This document shows positions 3,326 to 37,610 of a stretch of DNA of 38,499 bases, one piece after another. This DNA comes from a virus. Where the stretch lies: UHGV virus genome UHGV-2201310. One strand, 5' to 3'. The notes beneath the pieces were generated by a model, which saw only the letters and a program-made list of their open reading frames with translations, ran no database searches and was not told the DNA's origin. The translations under genes were made by a program, and so were the position numbers. How positions within the stretch are numbered: position 1 is the first letter of the stretch; every line of letters starts with the position of its first letter.

Positions 3326-3482
3326 GGTGTTCTTTCAGTTCTTCAATTCGAATATTGGTTACGTCTGCATGTGCTATCTGCGCCCATATCATCCAGTGGT
3401 CATAGCAGTCATTGATGTTCTCTGCTTCGATAACTCTGTTGAATGGCTCTCCATTCCATTCACCTGTCACCCGGAAGTGCAT
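3315..3482 (-). CDS. hypothetical small protein (55 aa)
   Basis: Short ORF MHFRVTGEWNGEPF... below the track length cutoff; stop falls in the terminator loop. Confidence 0.3.
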   Translation of the reverse strand: MHFRVTGEWNGEPFNRVIEAENINDCYDHWMIWAQIAHADVTNIRIEELKEHQAA

Positions 3483-3554
3483 TTATCATCTCCATAAAAC
3501 AAAACTCGCCGTAGCGAGTTCAGATAAAAGAAATCCCCGCAAATGCGAGGATTG

Positions 3555-3839
3555 TTATTCATTGCCGATATTCACCTTTATCGCGAACACTTTTACCGGT
3601 TTATCACCGAAGTGGGGATGTGTGATTGTCTTGATTTCATATCCGTCATACGGGACGTTAATTCTGCGGCTGGAGTCGTCGCGCTTCGGATATCCCCTTG
3701 TGATAATCAGGCGGTCATACTCCCGGAACATAATTCGCTTATTCCAGTAGTCATTATACAGGCGATACTCTTCCGTTTTCTCGCCTGACTTCATCTGGTC
3801 GAAATATTCACCGTTAACTGCCAGTTGAAGGTTAGCCAC
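3555..3839 (-). CDS. ASCH (PUA-like) domain protein
   Basis: 94 aa; N-terminal L.L.V....F..M.SG.KT.E.R pattern and C-terminal beta-strand region resemble ASCH/YqfB-type domains; GTG start. Confidence 0.55.
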   Translation of the reverse strand: MANLQLAVNGEYFDQMKSGEKTEEYRLYNDYWNKRIMFREYDRLIITRGYPKRDDSSRRINVPYDGYEIKTITHPHFGDKPVKVFAIKVNIGNE

Positions 3840-3841
3840 GG

Positions 3842-4357
3842 TTAACCCCCCTGCGGCGGTTCCGGTAGCGGCATCCAGTGGGTAATACTACCTGGATATA
3901 AAATCTTTGCTGGCCCCCAGTAGCCATCTGTATTAACACGCATAACCTCACAGCCATCAAAACCATCAGTTACAAGAACGTATTCATAAGGTTCCGGCAT
4001 CCTTTCGCTTACTGGAATCCAACCATCCGGAGTTGCCGGAGAGTTGCCATTTATATCGAAGTTTGGTTCTGCGTCCTGAACCAGGAGGATGTAACCATTC
4101 TTGGCAGTATCAAGTTCTAACGCCTCGGTGACGGTGCCGAAATAGCGATTACCTAAATCAGCATCACAAGTGCTTACATCAATGGAAACTTCCATGCCTT
4201 CGATTAATTCTGGCAAGTTGTAAGTTTGGCTTACAGGATCTGCTTCCAGTGATGCCAGTGCAATTCGTGCCAGTTCCATTTGTTCGCCACGAGTAAGTCC
4301 GTTTTCAAGCGGGGATTTAATGAACAATTCGATACGTTCTTTAGTGATAGTGCTCAT
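3842..4357 (-). CDS. DUF551-containing phage protein
   Basis: C-terminal ...THWMPLPEPP motif typical of DUF551; start at MSTITKE with AAGGAGAG RBS; start overlaps upstream gene stop. Confidence 0.6.
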   Translation of the reverse strand: MSTITKERIELFIKSPLENGLTRGEQMELARIALASLEADPVSQTYNLPELIEGMEVSIDVSTCDADLGNRYFGTVTEALELDTAKNGYILLVQDAEPNFDINGNSPATPDGWIPVSERMPEPYEYVLVTDGFDGCEVMRVNTDGYWGPAKILYPGSITHWMPLPEPPQGG

Positions 4358-4358
4358 A

Positions 4359-4910
4359 TCACTCTCCTTTGATGCGAATGCCTGTTGCAATGCTGTTTAT
4401 GATGCTGTCAGTGCATGGGGTAGAAAGCTGGGCATCTCCAGCAATTTTCATGACCTCAACATCTGCATATCGAATACCGAGGTGTATCAGACCGGCTATG
4501 CCTGACTTAAGCCGAGCATTTTCCATAAATAGAACTTTTGCCCGCTGTTTTTCTGCTTCAAGCTCAACGCGCAGCTTCCCTACCGTTAGCGCAATATCCT
4601 CGTTCTCCTGGTCGCGGCGTTTGATGTATTGCTGGTTTCTTTCCCGTTCATCCAGCAGCGCCAAGACGGTAGCGGGATTGGCTGCGGCGATGAATTCAGC
4701 ATTGGCCTGCTGTTCCATTTGGAAATCTTCATCGAAACCGCTTTCAGGATGCGCTCCTTCAATTCTGCAAATGGGAAGATATCCAACAACGTCACGATGA
4801 ATTAGCGCATCATCACAATCAAATCGGCTCTCTCCATATTCGAGCGACCACACACCACACGTTGCTTTCTCTGCCTTTTCACGCAGTGCCTGATAGTCAA
4901 TTTTGCTCAC
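4359..4910 (-). CDS. Ead/Ea22-like protein
   Basis: 183 aa beginning [17 protein letters not shown]..., coiled-coil middle; typical of Ea22-like prophage proteins; ATGA overlap with upstream gene. Confidence 0.6.
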   Translation of the reverse strand: MSKIDYQALREKAEKATCGVWSLEYGESRFDCDDALIHRDVVGYLPICRIEGAHPESGFDEDFQMEQQANAEFIAAANPATVLALLDERERNQQYIKRRDQENEDIALTVGKLRVELEAEKQRAKVLFMENARLKSGIAGLIHLGIRYADVEVMKIAGDAQLSTPCTDSIINSIATGIRIKGE

Positions 4911-5413
4911 TGGTTGCCCTCCTTCATAAAAATAATCCAGTGGGTCTTGTCACCCTTTCCTGTTCGTTGACCGATAACAGGCTTTCTGTCGGTCAGTGCC
5001 AATATTTGGCGAACAGGTATTTGCGTTTCATTCCATTTAAAAATCAGAACGCCGTATGGCCACAACACACGAAAGGCTTCTTTAAATCCCTGCCGCAAAT
5101 CATCACGCCAGGTATCTTTATTCAGCCGTCCATATTTCTTTCCCATCCAGGCGTTATCACCAACACGCTCAAGATGCGGAGGGTCGAATACAACAACCGG
5201 AAACGATGCGTCTGCAAATGGTAATGCACGAAAATCTGCTATCAGGTCAGGGCTAATTATCAGCCGTCGTCCATCACACAATGTGTGCTCTTCCTTTCTG
5301 ATATCGCTAAATATCGCCCGGTCGTCCTTCTTATCGAACCAGAACATGCGACTGCCACAGCACATGTCGAGGATTGCTGCATGTCCAGTCACTGGTTGCC
5401 TCCTTTGCGCCAC
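4907..5413 (-). CDS. small SAM-dependent DNA methyltransferase (phage Dam-like)
   Basis: 168 aa; motif I-like DMCCGSR and motif IV-like FDPPH in that order (gamma arrangement), no obvious target-recognition domain. Confidence 0.55.
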
Positions 5414-5556
5414 ATCGCATTCAGATATTTGTTTTGATTCACTGATGGAAAAGAATTTCTCTTAAGCAATTCCTCTCTCGATGGCATTGGCTTTACGCGT
5501 TGGCGAATAATCATTTCTGCCGGAAGAATGCCTGGATTGTATGCAAGTCCTCTCAT
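5389..5556 (-). CDS. hypothetical small protein
   Basis: Start chosen at MRGLAYNPG (GAGGA RBS); longer track ORF would overlap upstream gene extensively. Confidence 0.3.
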
Positions 5557-5566
5557 GGTAAATTCC

Positions 5567-5863
5567 TCAGTCATTACTGATAGCGCCATAGCGTGAGCGG
5601 TAATTACGCAGGCGCGGGTCGATATATTCAGGGAAGTGGGTATATGTGGCTTTGCGGAATGGTCGGATTGATGTCTGGTAAATTCGCTCGCGCTCTTCTT
5701 TCTCTGCAAGCCATATACAATGGCGAAATTCCTTTTCCTCTTTCGTTTCCTGCGGTAGCGACATTATCCGATCGTAGTTTTTTCTGAATTTATCCAGCAC
5801 CTCCGATACGGAATTGCCGGAACAGCGGCGCGCGTCGTCCGCACCATACAGAGGCGCTGGCAT
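5567..5863 (-). CDS. hypothetical protein
   Basis: 98 aa ORF with AGGAG RBS 7 nt before ATG. Confidence 0.5.
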
Positions 5864-5876
5864 GATTTTCTCCTGA

Positions 5877-6383
5877 TTAAATTGCGTGAATAGCGTGACG
5901 AGGGAAGGGGAGAGTTACTGGTGCAAAGGGTATATCGTCGTCAAAATCCATCGGAGGTTCGTTGTGTTGTGCTGGTGATGATTGCTGCTGTGGTTTCTGT
6001 GATTGCCTGCTGGCTGCTTGTTGTTTGCTGTCGCCAATGCCGCCAAGCATTTGCATCACGCCATTAATTCCGACATGAACCTCGGTTGTGTAACGGTCTT
6101 GCCCTGACTGGTCTTTCCACTTTCTGGTTCTCAGCATTCCCTCGAAATAAATCTGATCACCTTTTTTCACATACTGCCCCACGACCTCAGCCAGTTTCCC
6201 GGATACAGCAACACGATGCCATTCAGTCAATTCCTTTTGCTCGCCAGTATTTTTATCTCGCCATTGTTCTGACGTGGCTATTGTCAGGTTAGCGAACGCT
6301 GTTCCTGATGGTGAGTATCGAACTTCCGGGTCTTGTCCTACCCGACCAAGGATAATCACCTTATTTATCCCGCGAGAACTCAT
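5877..6383 (-). CDS. ssb: single-stranded DNA-binding protein with C-terminal extension
   Basis: [23 protein letters not shown]... OB fold, Gly/Gln-rich linker, acidic [10 protein letters not shown] motif; ORF continues 15 codons ([15 protein letters not shown]) past the canonical terminal F. Confidence 0.9.
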
Positions 6384-6847
6384 TTGCTCCACCTCTTGCC
6401 AGTTTTTATGTTGCTTATAATTGATTGAGATACACCCATGTCTTTTGCTATCTTGTACTGACTCTCTTTTTCAGAGAGTCTTTTCCTAATTTCTATAACC
6501 TGCCACTCTGTTAATTTTGCACCATGATGAGCATGACCTTTCTTGGCTCCACGATGCCTTCCTTTTGCTATCTTGTCGTCCATGTTTTCTTGCGCGCTAC
6601 CTAAAAAGAGATGTTCAGGATTAACGCAGCATGGGTTATCGCATTTGTGGCAAACCATCTTCCCAGATGGAATGGGGGAGTGATAAAGCTCAAAAGCAAC
6701 CCGATGAGAAAGCATTGTTACGCCAAAGGCTACAAATTTTGTGTATCCTCCTTTGTTTTTTGAATAGGTAGACTCCCAGCAACCTGTTGTTTCATTAACT
6801 TTGTAGCTGGACTCGAATCTTTTAATAATTCCGTCCAAGTGAGACAT
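6380..6847 (-). CDS. HNH homing endonuclease
   Basis: 155 aa with [18 protein letters not shown] motif and basic C-terminal DNA-binding tail; sits between recombinase and ssb. Confidence 0.85.
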
Positions 6848-7555
6848 TTATGCCGCCTGTTTTAGTTCGTTAACTCTGATGTTCATTACCTGAACGCATT
6901 TAGCCTGCGCTTCCTCGTTGCCAGCCATTAATTGCCAGTCACGCTGATAACGCTCGATGAGTTTTTTCTTGTCAGTTTCTGTTGACGCATAATCGCTGAA
7001 GTCTTTCAGGATTTGTTCGCAGTCAACCGATGGAGATTTCTGGTTGGTATTTTCTGGTGATGGTTTGTTATCTGATGCTGGGATTGCCCATCCCGGCAGC
7101 GATGGAGGGAGCCAGTAAAATCCTGTTCCATCCTTGAGTTTTGCCCTGTGCCATCCCTGCTTTTTATCGAGAGATGTTTGTGCAAAACCTTCCTCAAGGT
7201 TATACAGATACCGACCGATTCCCCACTGAACGGCAGCGCGCTTCATTGCACCGGAACGACCACCTTTGACGGCTTCTACCTGCGTGTTTTCAGCGGCATC
7301 CCATTTGGTTACCCATTCGGAATCAATCTTGATTGATATGCCGCATTCAACTCCGCCGTTGTTGGGAATATCGCGGTATTCATTGCGCCATCCTGCTTTG
7401 CCGCAAACATCGTCCAGGCGCTTCATGATTGCCCGGTTCGTGACATAAGCCAGCACCATAGCCCACACCTTGCCATCGCGTGTTTTACCGCTTTGCTGTA
7501 TTCGCCATTCGATATCTTCAGGGCTGAATGGCTCATCGAATTTGTTCAAATCCAT
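6848..7555 (-). CDS. single-strand annealing recombinase (Rad52/Sak-like N-terminus, Erf-like C-terminus)
   Basis: 235 aa; position equals P22 erf; C-terminal ...ETDKKKLIERYQRDWQLMAGNEEAQAKCVQVMNIRVNELKQ resembles Erf C-terminus as I recall it; GAGGTG RBS. Confidence 0.65.
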   Translation of the reverse strand: MDLNKFDEPFSPEDIEWRIQQSGKTRDGKVWAMVLAYVTNRAIMKRLDDVCGKAGWRNEYRDIPNNGGVECGISIKIDSEWVTKWDAAENTQVEAVKGGRSGAMKRAAVQWGIGRYLYNLEEGFAQTSLDKKQGWHRAKLKDGTGFYWLPPSLPGWAIPASDNKPSPENTNQKSPSVDCEQILKDFSDYASTETDKKKLIERYQRDWQLMAGNEEAQAKCVQVMNIRVNELKQAA

Positions 7556-31880: not shown

Positions 31881-33257
31881 ATGGCTACTTGGCAAGGATC
31901 AAATGGCGGATTGTTGGCCGGTATCGGTGGTGTGAACTCAAACGCTCCGAGCGTAAATGACATCGGCAATACGCTTCAGCTTATCAGGCAGAACAATGAT
32001 ATTGAGCGTTCAGGAGCCAATAATATTGGGTTGACTGCTTTGCAAGGTATTTCAGGTATTGCGGGTGTTTTTCAGCAGGAAAAGCAGGCTCAGCGGCAGA
32101 AAGAATTTCAGCAGGCATACGCTAATGCTTATGCGTCTGGTGATCGCGGTGCTTTGCGTCAGTTGGCTACTCAATATCCAGACCAGATTGAATCTGTTCG
32201 TAAAGGCATGGGATTCATTGATGAAGACCAGCGCAATTCTATCGGCACATTAGCGGCTGGCGCACGCCTTGCATCATCGTCTCCAGAAGCAATGCAATCA
32301 TGGCTGCAAAACAACGCCAAGGAACTGGCGCGCGTCGGTGTTGATCCTAACAACGTTGCTCAGATGTATCAGCAGAATCCTTCAGGATTTGGTGAGTTTG
32401 TTGATCACCTTGGGATGGCTGCTCTTGGTCCGATTGATTACTTCAATGTTCAGGACAAGATGGCTGGTCGTGAGATTGACCGAGGCAGGCTGGCAGAGAC
32501 AATCCGCAGCAATCAGGCTGGCGAGGCACTTCAGGCGAGAGGGCAAAACCTTTCCTATCAGTCAGCAATGACTGGACACGGACTTGCAGCAGAAAGACTG
32601 GCACTTGATAAGCAGAAATTCGGTTTTGAAGTACAACAGGCACAAAAGAAGGCCGATGAACTTATTAATGCTGCGCCAAAACTATCCGTGAACATGGAAA
32701 AGGCTATAGAAAAATCAGCAGGTGATGCGGCAGCTAGTCGTAATGCTGCCGATTCAATGACAACGCTTGCTGACACGCTGGAGAAGGAGAAGCCAACTCC
32801 TGGTTTGTTCGGTAACGCTGAAAATATGTTCACTAAGCTTACGGGGCAAGATAACTACCTCCGAGATATGCGGATTAGATTCAACCAACTAGCCAATGCG
32901 CAGGCAACCAAGCTTCTCCCTCCCGGCCCTGCATCAGATAAGGATATTGAGTTTGCAAGGAAAGGCATTCCAAGCGAAACGGATAATCCAATGGTCATGG
33001 CTCGATGGTTAAGGGGTATGGCAAAAATGGAAAGTAATAACGCGAAGTTCAACGAGTTTAGGTCAGAGTGGATGAGTGCAAACGGCAGCCCAGGACAATC
33101 TGATCGCAACCGAAACATCATGGGGATGGATGTTAAGAAGGGTGAATCATTGAACTCTGCGGCAAAACGTTTTCTTTCCTCAAGTTATGGCGATAGCCAA
33201 CCTCAACAGCAATTGTCCGATGACGAATTAATTAGCAAATATCTCGGAGGGCAGTAA
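31881..33257 (+). CDS. ejection protein (P22 gp20-like)
   Basis: 458 aa, conserved position and size. Confidence 0.7.
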
Positions 33258-35371
33258 TGGCCTATAGTCGTGAACAGTTGATGACGGCGTTAAGGAATGC
33301 TGATGCTGCCGGCGATACTGAGGGAGCACGTCGCATTGCTCAGATGCTGTCTTCTGGTGATCAATCCACTCAAAACCAATCGCAGCCAGAAGAACAATCT
33401 CTGGTAGGAAAAGCCACTGACTGGCTCACTGGTGGTCAAAGCGCAGGGCAAATTGCAGAACAGGCTGGCCGTGGTCTGGTAAACATACCATTTGACGTGT
33501 TACAGGGTGGTGCAAGCCTGATTAATGCAATCAGTCAGGGGCTTGGTGGTCCCAAGGTTTTGGATGATGTCTATCGTCCAGTCGATCGACCGACAGACCC
33601 TTACGCGCAAGTCGGTGAAACAATTGGTGGGTATCTCCTGCCAATTGGCACAGCGGCAAAAGCTGCTGGAGCGCCAGCAAAGCTCGCTGGAGATATCGGT
33701 TCCGCAGGAAACATGATTGCAGGTTCTCTTGCTGATGCTGCAAATCAGGAGGGAGACTTTGCACAAAATGCTGCCATTAACGGTGGTATCAATATTGGTG
33801 CTCAAGGCGTTCTTTCAGGTGTCGGGCGCGTTATTGCGCCAAGGGTTTCACAGGCTCTTGGTGGTGCAGCACTGAATTCTGCTAATGATGTTTCCAGGAT
33901 GGCAAAGTCAGGTGCTGGGCGTCAGTCAATTGCCAGTCAGGCCGCTAATGTGTCCGAAGATGTAGCAAAAGCGGCTGAGTCTGCTGGAATTGATATAAAC
34001 GCATTAACACCAGGAATGCGATCTGGAAGTCGTGGAATTGCACAAGCCGAAGGCGCATTGGCATCAACACCAGGAATTGTTCAGGACGCCCATCAGGCAG
34101 CATTTGACGAAATATCATCAAAGTTAAGTCGAAACCTTGATGAATTTGGGGCCGCATCTGGAACGGCATCAGAAAAAAGTGCGGCTATAAAACAAAGGAT
34201 TCTTCAAAATCTTGATCAGATGAAGGATGCCGAGCGCGCGGCATGGGATGACGTGCGGTCAACGATGCCAAATCAAAAAGCAAGAATGCTAAATGGTAAT
34301 GCCGTTATTCAGGCAGAGCGATCTGCTGGCATACCGCTTACTCCTGAAATGAAACAGTTTGTTCAGGCAAACAATCAAGGTGGAGTAACATTTGATGGCA
34401 TGAAAGCATGGAGAGCGAAATTTGCTGATGCGGAGCAAAAATATAAGCGTAGCGGAGAGGCAAATGCGGCAAGGAGAGCAGGGGAAATACGCCGGGCAAT
34501 TACTGATGATATGCGCACAATGGCGGAAAACGGCGGATTTCTTGATGACTGGCAGAAAGCTAATGATCTGTCTAAAGCGAGGTTATCAGCACAAGAGAGT
34601 GCAGAGTCTGTTTTCGGGCGTGATTTGGCAACAGATACACTGATTACGAATGGAGTAAAATCCCTTCAATCATCGTCAGCTAAAGGTCTTAATGGTCCTG
34701 CTGGGTTCCATTCTATGATCCGCGCGCTGCCAGAATCAGAGCGTGTTCCTGCTATATCATCAATGTTGCAAGATGCTATCTCGCATGGTGTACGTGGTGG
34801 CAAAGCTGATGCAGCAGGAATTAACCATATCGCAGAGATACTCACTCCACAAAATGTAAAAGCCATTAGCCGATATTCCTCAGAGCTTGGAAGAATTGCA
34901 GATGCATATGGCACTCTTGCAAGAGCAGCAGTGAAACCTCAGCAGTATATTGAAAGAACAGGGCGAACTGCCAATGTACTACGCGATCTGGATGCTGGTT
35001 TATCCAACGTTACATCAACAGTGTTAAATGCAATTGCCAATTCAACATCAGGTGCCATTGTTGGTGGAGCAGGAGGAGGGGGCGTTGCTGGCGCTGCCGC
35101 TGGCGCTTTAGTTGGCGCAGGGTTAAAAGGCGCTGTATCTAAAATTGCCACCACACGTAGTGGTCGGTATGCGATAGAGAAAGCCGTTCAGGAAGCCACT
35201 AAAGCAGTAAGAACCGGCGGAAGCAAAGAAGCATTAGCTGCGGCGGAACGCAGATTTATGGCAAATAAGGCCGCTGTAAAAGCGATACGTGATACAGTCG
35301 GAAACGAAGAGTTTCAGCGATTAGCGAGGGCTGGGATTGTGGCATCGCTAAGCGGAATGGCACAGGAGTAA
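33257..35371 (+). CDS. ejection protein (P22 gp16-like)
   Basis: 704 aa, Ala/Gly-rich with C-terminal glycine-rich hydrophobic segment; conserved position. Confidence 0.7.
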
Positions 35372-35466
35372 TTAGTCGTCCACGGATGGATTGAGCTTAT
35401 CTCGTGCTTCACATTTGGTTGTTTTGTCATTAGGATGTTTCCGGTTTTTTAAATATGGAAATTGAT

Positions 35467-35757
35467 ATGAAGAGGATCATTGCGGTTGCTTGTTTTAATG
35501 TCTTTCTTTTATCTGGTTGTGCAACATCTTCTAAAACATACGCCCCTGATGGTAGAGAAGCATACACTATTGATTGCTCAGGTCTGGGGGGATCATGGGG
35601 GATGTGCCTAACTAAGGCTGGCGATTTGTGTGGAAGCAAAGGATATGATGTACTGACATCAGCTGGAGATAAAGGATTTATAGCATCAGCAAACCCCGAA
35701 ATGGCGTTTGCAGGCAATACCATCTCAAGGAATTTACTCATCGCTTGTAAAAAGTGA
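35467..35757 (+). CDS. small Cys-rich lipoprotein (cargo)
   Basis: Signal peptide MKRIIAVACFNVFLLSGC with lipobox; mature ~80 aa with 4 further Cys; alternative start 35455. Confidence 0.6.
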   Translation: MKRIIAVACFNVFLLSGCATSSKTYAPDGREAYTIDCSGLGGSWGMCLTKAGDLCGSKGYDVLTSAGDKGFIASANPEMAFAGNTISRNLLIACKK

Positions 35758-35774
35758 ACTAGCGCCATGGATGG

Positions 35775-36152
35775 CTATCTTATTGATTTACCATAATTAT
35801 ACATCTCAACATGAGCGCTGGCATACGCTCTCGCTGAATGATCATCAATTAAAGCTTTCTTTGCAGCTTTATAGTTATATTCCCATAATAAATTTGTATC
35901 ATATGACTGATTTTCAATTCCTTTTTCACAAGTAAATATCAATCCGTTTATTGTTGATATTTCAACCGGGCTAATTTTCCCATCGGTGCCACTGCGCAAT
36001 CCAGAGAGGATAAGGTCTCTATCACCTGTAAGTAACTTGCGATAATAAACATCAGCTGCCTTTGCAGAGCATTCTGCACTAGATGCAAAAGATGCATTAG
36101 ATATTATCAAAAGCATACCAATAAGAATTAACTTTAGGGCGCTAACCTTCAT
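35775..36152 (-). CDS. secreted/periplasmic hypothetical protein (cargo)
   Basis: Cleavable signal peptide MKVSALKLILIGMLLIISNASFA; downstream of mnt on same strand; alternative start 36164. Confidence 0.55.
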   Translation of the reverse strand: MKVSALKLILIGMLLIISNASFASSAECSAKAADVYYRKLLTGDRDLILSGLRSGTDGKISPVEISTINGLIFTCEKGIENQSYDTNLLWEYNYKAAKKALIDDHSARAYASAHVEMYNYGKSIR

Positions 36153-36399
36153 TGTTCTTGCCATAAATTCTTTTCAGTGTATCGAATACCATTTTTTTTA
36201 CAATTTCAGACTGCTCATCAGCAATTTTCTCAGCTTCGTTGCGATAACCAACTACAGGAGATGGTTTTGATAGAGCATCTTGGACGATTTGCAACAGCTC
36301 GGAGTTCATGGATCTCCCATTCGCCTCTGCTCTGAATTTCAATTTTTCTCTCACTTCCAAAGGCATGCGGAAGTTAAAGTGCGGATCATCTCTAGCCAT
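36142..36399 (-). CDS. mnt: Mnt repressor (ribbon-helix-helix)
   Basis: MARDDPHFNFRMPLEVREKLKFRAEANGRSMNSELLQIV... matches P22 Mnt. Confidence 0.85.
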   Translation of the reverse strand: MARDDPHFNFRMPLEVREKLKFRAEANGRSMNSELLQIVQDALSKPSPVVGYRNEAEKIADEQSEIVKKMVFDTLKRIYGKNNEG

Positions 36400-36421
36400 G
36401 CCATTACTCCAAGTCAGTGTA

Positions 36422-36474
36422 TTGACATGATAGAAGCAGTCTACTATATTCTCAATAGGTCCACCGTGGACCTA
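36422..36474. promoter_or_regulatory. Pant promoter with Arc operator and Mnt operator
   Basis: TTGACA-17-TATATT; Arc operator ATGATAGAAGCAGTCTACTAT in spacer; perfect palindrome TAGGTCCACCGTGGACCTA (Mnt operator). Confidence 0.7.
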
Positions 36475-36719: not shown

Positions 36720-37610
36720 ATGTCAAGCTTAGCAAAGTCAACTGTAAATTGCACTAATAGCATCATCATTTCTGACGTCAAGATTCATATGGATTCAGAG
36801 GGGCGTTACTCGCTTAATGACCTTCATGTAGCGTCTGGGAAGGAGGAAAAACATCAGCCAGCTTTCTTCATGCGTAGAAATGAAACTATTGAATTGATTA
36901 ATGAAATTTTTAATTCTGCGGATATGCAGAATAAGAATCCCGTCCTTTCTAAGAAAGGTCGATATGGTGGAACCTACGTGTGCAAGGAGCTTGTTTACTC
37001 CTACGCCATGTGGATTAGCGCAGCCTTTGCGCTGAAGGTTATCCGTGCATATGACGCAATGGTTACTGCCACACAAGAGAGGAAGGCTATTGGAGGTAAA
37101 ACTTCAGTAGCTGAACGCACACCGCTACGAGATGCAGTAAACATGCTGGTAGGAAAGAAAGGACTTCGCTATGACGATGCATACAATATGGTTCATCAGC
37201 GTTTTGGTATTGACAGCATTGATGAACTTTCAATTGAACAAATTCCGCTGGCCGTAGAGTACATCCACAGGGTAGTGCTTGAAGGTGAATTCATCGGCAA
37301 ACAAGAGAAGAAAACCAGCGAGCTTTCTGCAAAAGAAGCAAACAGCCTTGTATGGTTATGGGATTATGCCAACCGCTCACAGGCATTATTCCGCGAACTG
37401 TATCCGGCATTAAAACAAATTCAATCGAACTATTCCGGCAGATGCTACGACTACGGTCATGAGTTCTCGTATGTTATCGGAATGGCGAGGGACGTTTTAA
37501 TCAATCACACACGAGATGTTGATATCAATGAGCCAGAAGGACCAACGAATCTTTCCGCATGGATGAGACTTAAGAATAAAGAATTACCTCCTTCAGTACA
37601 TAACTACTGA
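36720..37610 (+). CDS. ant: antirepressor Ant (KilA-N domain)
   Basis: 296 aa; N-terminal KilA-N-like region; downstream of arc as in P22 immI. Confidence 0.8.

Follow-up and report, generated by a model that had tools for sequence, protein, structure and literature searches.

The variable slot between the last ejection gene and the mnt repressor gene of UHGV virus genome UHGV-2201310, whose whole stretch of 38,499 nucleotides (nt) was analysed here and is called the window, is occupied by two small genes, one for a cysteine-rich lipoprotein of the orf62 type and one, which we call ORF-B, for a predicted periplasmic protein. We consider with good confidence that these are two independent envelope accessory genes ('morons') which are expressed in the lysogen and have accumulated in a hypervariable slot. 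The complete proposal, according to which their products also block entry of other phages, is more tentative, and we would place it somewhat below even chances. The window represents a P22-like prophage of Escherichia coli, and its positions 35300-36450 are 99.9% identical to a prophage in E. coli UPEC_U013, where the ejection genes are followed by two genes annotated as 'hypothetical', then by two of the Arc family, the antirepressor gene and the tailspike gene.

The left border of the slot is formed by the homolog of gene 16 (33257..35371, + strand), which encodes the last ejection or DNA-transfer protein (704 amino acids, aa; 'DNA transfer protein' in UPEC_U013). The lipoprotein gene (35467..35757, +; 96 aa, or 100 aa from the alternative annotated start at 35455) and ORF-B (35775..36152, -; 125 aa, or 129 aa from the alternative start at 36164) are convergent, and their stop codons are separated by a 17-nt spacer (35758..35774), which contains a small GCCA-TGGA-TGGC hairpin and constitutes a module boundary. 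At its other end, ORF-B overlaps the stop codon of mnt by 11 or 23 nt, depending on the start codon. The mnt gene itself (36142..36399, -) encodes an Arc/Mnt ribbon-helix-helix repressor (Pfam Arc, 2.5e-28; Repressor_Mnt, 1.6e-16), and arc and ant were likewise identified by Pfam matches in the window. Beyond mnt, two promoter-like sites, Pant (+, 11/12) and Pmnt (-, 10/12), overlap in divergent orientation (36422..36455), which is the layout of the P22 immI region, in the records of which these promoters are annotated. A preliminary description of this DNA had reported here a convergent pair consisting of a lipoprotein with four extra cysteines and a signal-peptide protein, and both open reading frames (ORFs) are indeed present, with slightly corrected start codons. 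It had also regarded the segment as mosaic cargo, AT-richer than its flanks. This was borne out, as the GC content of positions 35372-36141 is 39.1%, compared to 47.9% in the window, which corresponds to the 2nd percentile of 770-nt windows; the mnt/ant region as a whole is also somewhat AT-rich.

The ORF of the lipoprotein gene extends over 35455-35757 (+), and the ATG at 35467 (MKRII...) is preferred as its start because it is preceded, at a distance of 8 nt, by GGA, its homologs have lengths of 94-97 aa, and the profile of PHROG 5685 aligns to residues 1-96. The match to this profile is full-length (E = 6.3e-52; residues 1-96 on profile positions 1-97). The protein is 64% identical, over its full length, to the product of orf62 of phages ST104, ST64T and L, a gene known from these phages as uncharacterised (PMC8022706) and labelled 'putative lipoprotein' in some records. 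Apart from family membership, orf62 of these phages and the window gene share the lipobox, the four cysteines and the location in the slot, right after gene 16 and before mnt. The window differs from these phages in its host (E. coli instead of Salmonella), in the presence of ORF-B between the lipoprotein gene and mnt, and in having the full arc-ant immI region. Our literature searches returned no functional study of either orf62 or ORF-B.

The lipoprotein signal peptide (35467..35520, +) ends in the lipobox L-S-G-C18. In an alignment of 33 diverse homologs, C18 is nearly invariant and C37, C47, C55 and C94 are invariant; further conserved elements are TYAPDGR, CSG, W44, KAGxLCG and GY, and all these motifs occur in the window protein. 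A sixth cysteine, C9, lies inside the signal peptide and is not conserved. The mature lipoprotein (79 aa) is probably doubly disulfide-bonded, as suggested by the four invariant cysteines, and AlphaFold2 predicts for it a compact beta-beta-alpha-beta-beta domain (pLDDT 76.8). According to the +2 sorting rule, which is well established for lipoproteins, the alanine found at this position of the window protein would direct it to the outer membrane. The first strand is predicted at residue 20, two residues past the acylated cysteine, and with such a very short linker the modelled domain should lie flat on the outer membrane, at its periplasmic side. One Salmonella cluster representative of this family (P0018) has an arginine in place of the lipobox cysteine (FLAGR...), whereas phage L (L004 3001-3294) encodes FLAGC; in P0018, either lipidation has been lost or the sequence contains an error. 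An antisense ORF of 112 aa, which covers positions 35430-35768 (-), was judged spurious, since the pattern of conservation in this segment tracks the frame on the + strand.

The ORF of ORF-B occupies positions 35775-36164 (-), and the start at 36152 (MKVSALK...) is preferred because the alignment with PHROG 32609 begins at residue 5 of the longer version. The profile match is full-length also in this case (E = 3.1e-85). The sole hydrophobic 19-mer windows of the protein correspond to its N-terminal signal peptide (residues 1-23; 36084..36152, -), with a signal-peptidase I site predicted between A and S of S-F-A-S and with no lipobox. The family alignment reveals two invariant cysteines and conservation of the A-S/A-S cleavage motif. 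The mature protein, of ~102 aa, is all-helical and is modelled by AlphaFold2 as a helical bundle (pLDDT 87.4). The ORF-B product is probably a soluble periplasmic helical bundle with one disulfide. The earlier suggestion that both products are exported envelope proteins is supported by the lipobox of the lipoprotein and the signal-peptidase I site of the ORF-B product.

Searches of Pfam and NCBIfam gave nothing above threshold for either protein. YgdI/YgdR lipoproteins (NF033216) scored 16.9 bits against the lipoprotein, with a cut-off of 42, and the match covered residues 4-36, that is, mainly the signal peptide. Profile searches of PDB sequences yielded no match for either protein; no component of the PADLOC-DB 2.0 defence collection matched the lipoprotein, and the one match obtained there for ORF-B (E = 0.012) was judged spurious. 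The statement of the preliminary description that neither protein matches a nameable family stands, therefore, for Pfam and NCBIfam, but not for PHROGs, where both proteins belong to families with no function assigned (5685 and 32609), and the lipoprotein is that of orf62.

Both the lipoprotein gene and ORF-B are real genes under purifying selection. The dN/dS ratio of the former, calculated between the window and E. coli DLL7555, is 0.026 at dS of 0.61, and that of ORF-B is ~0.12-0.13. One could imagine that a recombination hot spot contains decaying or non-functional filler ORFs, and the rarity of both genes in E. coli, as well as the many unrelated ORFs held by the slot, would agree with that. 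However, selection of this strength, the maintenance of invariant cysteines and export signals across wide divergence, and the confidently predicted AlphaFold2 folds all speak for functional products, and the dN/dS values essentially refute the idea of filler.

The two genes were originally described as a two-gene module. This view had to be abandoned, as each of them was found without the other in several lineages. The lipoprotein gene occurs without ORF-B in phages L, ST64T and ST104, where it stands alone with mnt, in Yersinia aldovae, in a Serratia prophage, with an orientation opposite to that of gene 16, and in E. coli DLL7555. Homology between the window and DLL7555 stops exactly in the 17-nt spacer between the lipoprotein gene and ORF-B. 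Conversely, ORF-B is present without the lipoprotein gene in Pluralibacter (locus L008), in Salmonella (L009-L011), and in loci L032 and L033. The preliminary description had proposed to look for conservation of the pair in related prophages, and the convergent arrangement was found in three diverged ones, namely the window lineage, L007 and L034 (protein identities of ~80% and ~70%); the pairing is, however, not obligate. In L034, the 95-aa orf62-type lipoprotein gene (3398-3685, -) had not been called in the source collection.

The two families also differ greatly in size and distribution. The lipoprotein family comprises at least 720 clusters at 90% identity, none of them with a Pfam domain, from hosts that include Enterobacterales, Burkholderiales, Rheinheimera, and alpha- and zetaproteobacterial metagenome-assembled genomes (MAGs). 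Its loci were surveyed with a reduced alignment, which returned 10 loci and provides a sample rather than a census. ORF-B forms 10 clusters at 90% identity, with 6 representatives among 1.84 billion proteins, and every ORF-B context examined was a P22-like prophage.

Recurrence of the convergent pair in three diverged prophages might point to an obligate two-component module, in which the lipoprotein and ORF-B work only jointly. In line with this, ORF-B is accompanied elsewhere by a different lipoprotein (L033; 161 aa, LLAGC lipobox, phrog_6067, encoded at 4482-4967, +, upstream of ORF-B) or by a small membrane protein with two transmembrane segments (two-TM; L032; 72 aa, phrog_32536, encoded at 4417-4635, +, downstream of ORF-B). 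Nevertheless, we regard such an obligate partnership as very improbable, because, in addition to the lineages with only one of the genes, the family sizes are about two orders of magnitude apart, the genes are convergent and do not form one transcript, and the recombination breakpoint in DLL7555 is placed exactly between them. The slot collects envelope genes, and the lipoprotein gene and ORF-B are separable units within it.

The position of these units can be compared directly with that in P22. The slot bounded by genes 16 and 9 is known as the hypervariable 'ant moron' of P22-like phages (PMC2629481, PMC8022706), and its contents in P22 are sieA, two small ORFs and mnt-arc-ant (PMC2629481; PMC8022706). 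In the P22 record, gene 16 (+) is followed by sieA (-), ORF59 (-) and mnt (-). The location had previously been equated with the sieA slot, and rightly so, since P22 sieA is found at the same place, convergent with gene 16. It is ORF-B that has the place and orientation of sieA, being convergent with gene 16 and downstream of mnt; the lipoprotein gene is a further insertion, on the gene 16 side of ORF-B. ORF-B lies between genes 16 and 9, convergent with gene 16, in the window and in seven other contexts. The slot contents differ among the window, DLL7555, ETEC1721, phage L, P22 and others, and gene 16 and mnt/gene 9 are conserved; presence and absence between conserved flanks, and base composition unlike that of the flanks, are features expected of morons. 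In the other carrier slots examined, none of the called genes was sieA-like; gene lists only were inspected there, with no SieA search of those loci.

Arguments for expression in the lysogen come from the genomic context. ORF-B is situated directly behind an mnt-type gene, or overlaps it, in five of its eight distinct contexts (the window, L007, L032, L034 and L008), the relevant gene in L008 being an uncalled one for a 118-aa ribbon-helix-helix Mnt/Arc-like protein (5584-5940, +), located directly upstream of ORF-B. Mnt is the repressor of ant which is expressed in lysogens, and ORF-B, lying behind its gene, is therefore expected to be made in the lysogen as well. Pmnt is the likely source of an mnt-ORF-B transcript, and from this arrangement we infer expression in the lysogen for the window prophage.

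For the lipoprotein family, indications of this kind are provided by unrelated prophages. In Caballeronia udeis (L029), the lipoprotein gene starts 3 nt past the stop codon of a CI-type repressor gene (HTH_3 and Peptidase_S24 domains) and has a canonical terminator (6318-6345) downstream of it and, further on, a TTGACA-17-TAAGAT promoter. In L017, a gene for a CI-type repressor comes first, then a two-TM ORF that had not been called (5573-5949, +; ~125 aa, with hydrophobic N- and C-terminal segments), the start of which overlaps the cI stop codon (TGATG), and then the lipoprotein gene, and the three may form a repressor operon. Operator-like TACAACC/GGTTGTA repeats, present between cro and cI of this locus (4754-4831), recur only past the stop codon of the lipoprotein gene (6352-6415). 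Similarly, a 17-nt element of the cro/repressor intergenic region of L019 recurs, in inverted form, downstream of the lipoprotein gene. Since in these three loci the lipoprotein gene lies inside the immunity region, its transcription with the repressor in lysogens is suggested by the layout, and members of the family should be expressed in lysogens of those unrelated prophages. In Burkholderia phage JC1, the lipoprotein homolog belongs to an antisense two-gene island. Judged by their surroundings, both genes fit a role in lysogenic conversion or exclusion.

The role that we consider the most likely single one is that both proteins, made in the lysogen, would alter the envelope so that an incoming phage could not deliver its DNA. 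The lipoprotein would bind a conserved component of the host outer membrane or periplasm and block a step after adsorption, following the logic of the Llp and Cor proteins, although its fold is unrelated. ORF-B would be translated from the mnt transcript, and its product would disturb the periplasmic portion of the ejection conduit (gp7/gp20/gp16) formed by P22-like phages. The outcome of the latter activity would be SieA-like, although reached from a different compartment, as SieA blocks from the inner membrane (PMC10883804). A bolder version, in which the orf62-type family would constitute a new exclusion class widespread in Proteobacteria, and ORF-B would be a SieA replacement jamming gp20/gp16, so that the prophage would possess two entry blocks stacked in different layers of the envelope, appears to us unlikely.

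Several observations weigh against the proposed exclusion by lysogen-expressed proteins. Neither the lipoprotein nor ORF-B shows similarity, in sequence or fold, to any known exclusion protein with which it was compared. To our knowledge, L lysogens have not been reported to exclude P22. A homolog of orf62 is present in phage L, whose genome paper nevertheless names no known gene for exclusion (PMC8022706). Both genes are rare, the lipoprotein gene being present in 3 and ORF-B in 2 of the 5426 complete E. coli genomes. Some members of the lipoprotein family occur outside phages: one homolog (41% identity; 3553-3918 in L030, an alphaproteobacterial MAG) is located between nuoF and nuoG, and another, in Rheinheimera, lies beside a TonB-dependent receptor gene. 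Such contexts imply that the ancestral activity of the family was not necessarily related to phages.

The expression signals of the lipoprotein gene in the window count on the same side. No convincing promoter was found there, consensus scans giving results at the chance level and a single weak sigma-70-like site of uncertain status, TTCACA-17-TAGGAT (35408..35436, +; 9/12), being located upstream of the gene. This site is identical in DLL7555 and is not conserved in more distant loci, and the upstream regions do not align between lineages. The spacer hairpin is no better than shuffled sequences (z = -0.4), and no convincing terminator was detected by the lipoprotein gene in the window. A conserved bidirectional terminator between this gene and ORF-B had been considered, and it was dropped for the window in view of the shuffle-level hairpin. 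L007 keeps the spacer hairpin through compensatory changes, the hairpins of L007 and phage L are better than that of the window, and phage L has a good terminator after orf62.

Co-orientation of the lipoprotein gene with the late operon makes its late read-through expression possible, and this forms the basis of another interpretation, namely a role in the lytic cycle. The lipoprotein, produced by read-through from the late operon, could act late and spare released virions or ejection proteins from being lost to lysing cells and debris, or aid lysis or envelope remodelling. T5 Llp is, after all, made during infection. The lipoprotein gene is co-oriented with gene 16 and located from at most 95 nt to ~140 nt downstream of it in the window, phage L, Yersinia, L007 and L034, with no clear terminator in between and no convincing promoter of its own. 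Moreover, P22 sieA itself is upregulated on induction (PMC10883804). However, the lipoprotein gene of the Serratia prophage has the opposite orientation to gene 16, in three or four unrelated prophages the gene resides in the repressor operon, and a lytic function would not apply to ORF-B, whose orientation is opposite to that of the late operon. We consider this possibility quite improbable.

A function in the lysogen that is not directed against phages should be considered more seriously, although on balance it is still somewhat unlikely. Such lysogenic conversion, by one or both proteins, could consist in immunity to a toxin that acts in the periplasm (a type VI amidase or lysozyme-like effector, or a bacteriocin), in inhibition of host lysozyme or of a lytic transglycosylase, or in serum resistance of the Bor/Iss type. 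Lysozyme inhibitors and immunity proteins of the periplasm are typically small and disulfide-bonded, and either periplasmic or anchored in the outer membrane. The breadth of the lipoprotein family, which extends over Gamma-, Beta-, Alpha- and Zetaproteobacteria with its at least 720 clusters, together with preservation of the motif TYAPDGR...CSG...W..C..KAG.LCG..GY, suggests a conserved target rather than a rapidly evolving phage protein. Homologs located near an integron-type integrase gene, next to an AIPR gene, or in plain chromosomal contexts are also in agreement with a general envelope function. On the other hand, no match to any inhibitor or immunity family was found in Pfam, NCBIfam or PDB sequences, and the restriction of ORF-B to P22-like prophages, at the sieA position, is hard to reconcile with a general role in the envelope. 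The homolog in L023, a Methyloversatilis MAG (4695-6243), is adjacent to and divergent from a gene for an integron-type tyrosine recombinase (Phage_int_SAM_4 and Phage_integrase domains) and may represent a gene cassette; a PIN-domain gene is found nearby.

Earlier publications describe the variable slot as well as orf62, and both proteins are listed in PHROGs as unknowns. What is new is, first, the presence of a large lipoprotein family, so far without a name, in repressor operons of unrelated prophages and, second, that a P22-restricted predicted periplasmic protein occupies the exact place of sieA, with no sieA-like gene listed in the carrier slots. If either protein does block DNA entry, studies of the trans-envelope conduit used by short-tailed phages for ejection, which is still poorly understood, would gain a second point of access at a different location. 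Prophage genes that alter the envelope decide which phages can infect a strain, and this is relevant to phage therapy; they also bear on DNA exchange among pathogenic lineages of E. coli and Salmonella.

Other genes were encountered in and around this slot. In E. coli DLL7555 (L002), the lipoprotein gene is followed by a gene of the YobH family (6476-6682, -) and a gene encoding a Panacea domain (7051-7500, +), a domain typical of antitoxins. In E. coli ETEC1721 (L003), a gene for a ClpP-like protease subunit (3991-4527, -) directly abuts the end of mnt, and other P22-like prophages of E. coli have at this end a gene for a protein with a transthyretin-like or peptidase-associated domain; these genes are further unexplained cargo at the sieA position. 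The Salmonella loci L009-L011 contain a hicA/hicB-like (DUF1902) toxin-antitoxin pair (5005-5859) between mnt and ORF-B. The gp16 homologs of L007, L008, L032, L033 and L034 (834-910 aa) have an N-terminal SLT lytic-transglycosylase domain, which was not noted in the 704-aa gp16 of the window, a protein not scanned against Pfam, or in the Serratia, Yersinia and phage L types; the ejection protein adjoining the slot is itself mosaic. The window antirepressor (36720-37610, +) combines an N-terminal KilA-N domain with a C-terminal P22_AR_C domain, while homologs of P22 ant found elsewhere (e.g. in L033) have P22_AR_N, which makes this gene a further mosaic joint in the region.

Comparison with known exclusion and conversion proteins helps to delimit what the two products may be. 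T5 Llp and the Cor proteins of N15, phi80 and HK022 are FhuA-blocking lipoproteins, and the preliminary description placed the window lipoprotein in one class with them. This assignment was not upheld: T5 Llp and N15 Cor both match phrog_1119 and the window lipoprotein does not, hhalign comparisons with T5 Llp and N15 Cor aligned signal-peptide columns only (18 and 26, respectively), and no specific structural match for the lipoprotein was obtained in PDB or BFVD, Foldseek giving no match in the latter at E <= 0.001. The likeness consists in small size, phage origin, a short tether (lipobox LSGC in the window protein) and cysteines in the mature part. The settings differ, as llp and cor are located next to the receptor-binding protein gene, in contrast to the ejection-gene/immI slot or the repressor operon of the family described here. 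Nevertheless, Llp and Cor are a plausible analogy for a protein that would block a receptor in the outer membrane from its periplasmic side.

Two lambda systems resemble the lipoprotein gene in other respects. Like Bor/Iss, which confers serum resistance, its product would be a small outer-membrane lipoprotein encoded by a prophage moron and expressed in the lysogen; however, it has no match to the Bor family in Pfam, and its predicted fold and cysteine pattern are different. The rexAB genes of lambda are cotranscribed with the repressor gene, as would be, by position, the distant members of the lipoprotein family, which lie between cI and the following promoter or operator set, a location classically occupied by exclusion genes expressed from the prophage. 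Unlike them, the window gene is not beside a repressor gene, and the Rex proteins are abortive-infection proteins of the cytoplasm or inner membrane with no sequence relation to the lipoprotein.

As regards ORF-B, the obvious counterpart is P22 SieA, which spans the inner membrane several times and has the motif FxRYPxEAxxFNK on the cytoplasmic side (PMC10883804). Homology of the two was considered and rejected, since hhalign gave a probability of 0.1% and this motif is absent from the ORF-B alignment. In contrast to SieA, the ORF-B product has a cleavable signal peptide as its only hydrophobic segment and is predicted to be soluble in the periplasm, and whereas P22 sieA has its own promoter, ORF-B overlaps mnt. 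What they have in common is the place and orientation in the slot, ORF-B being confined to P22-like prophages. SieA acts on the gp20/gp16 conduit (PMC10883804), and with such a target the periplasm would be a plausible site of interference for ORF-B.

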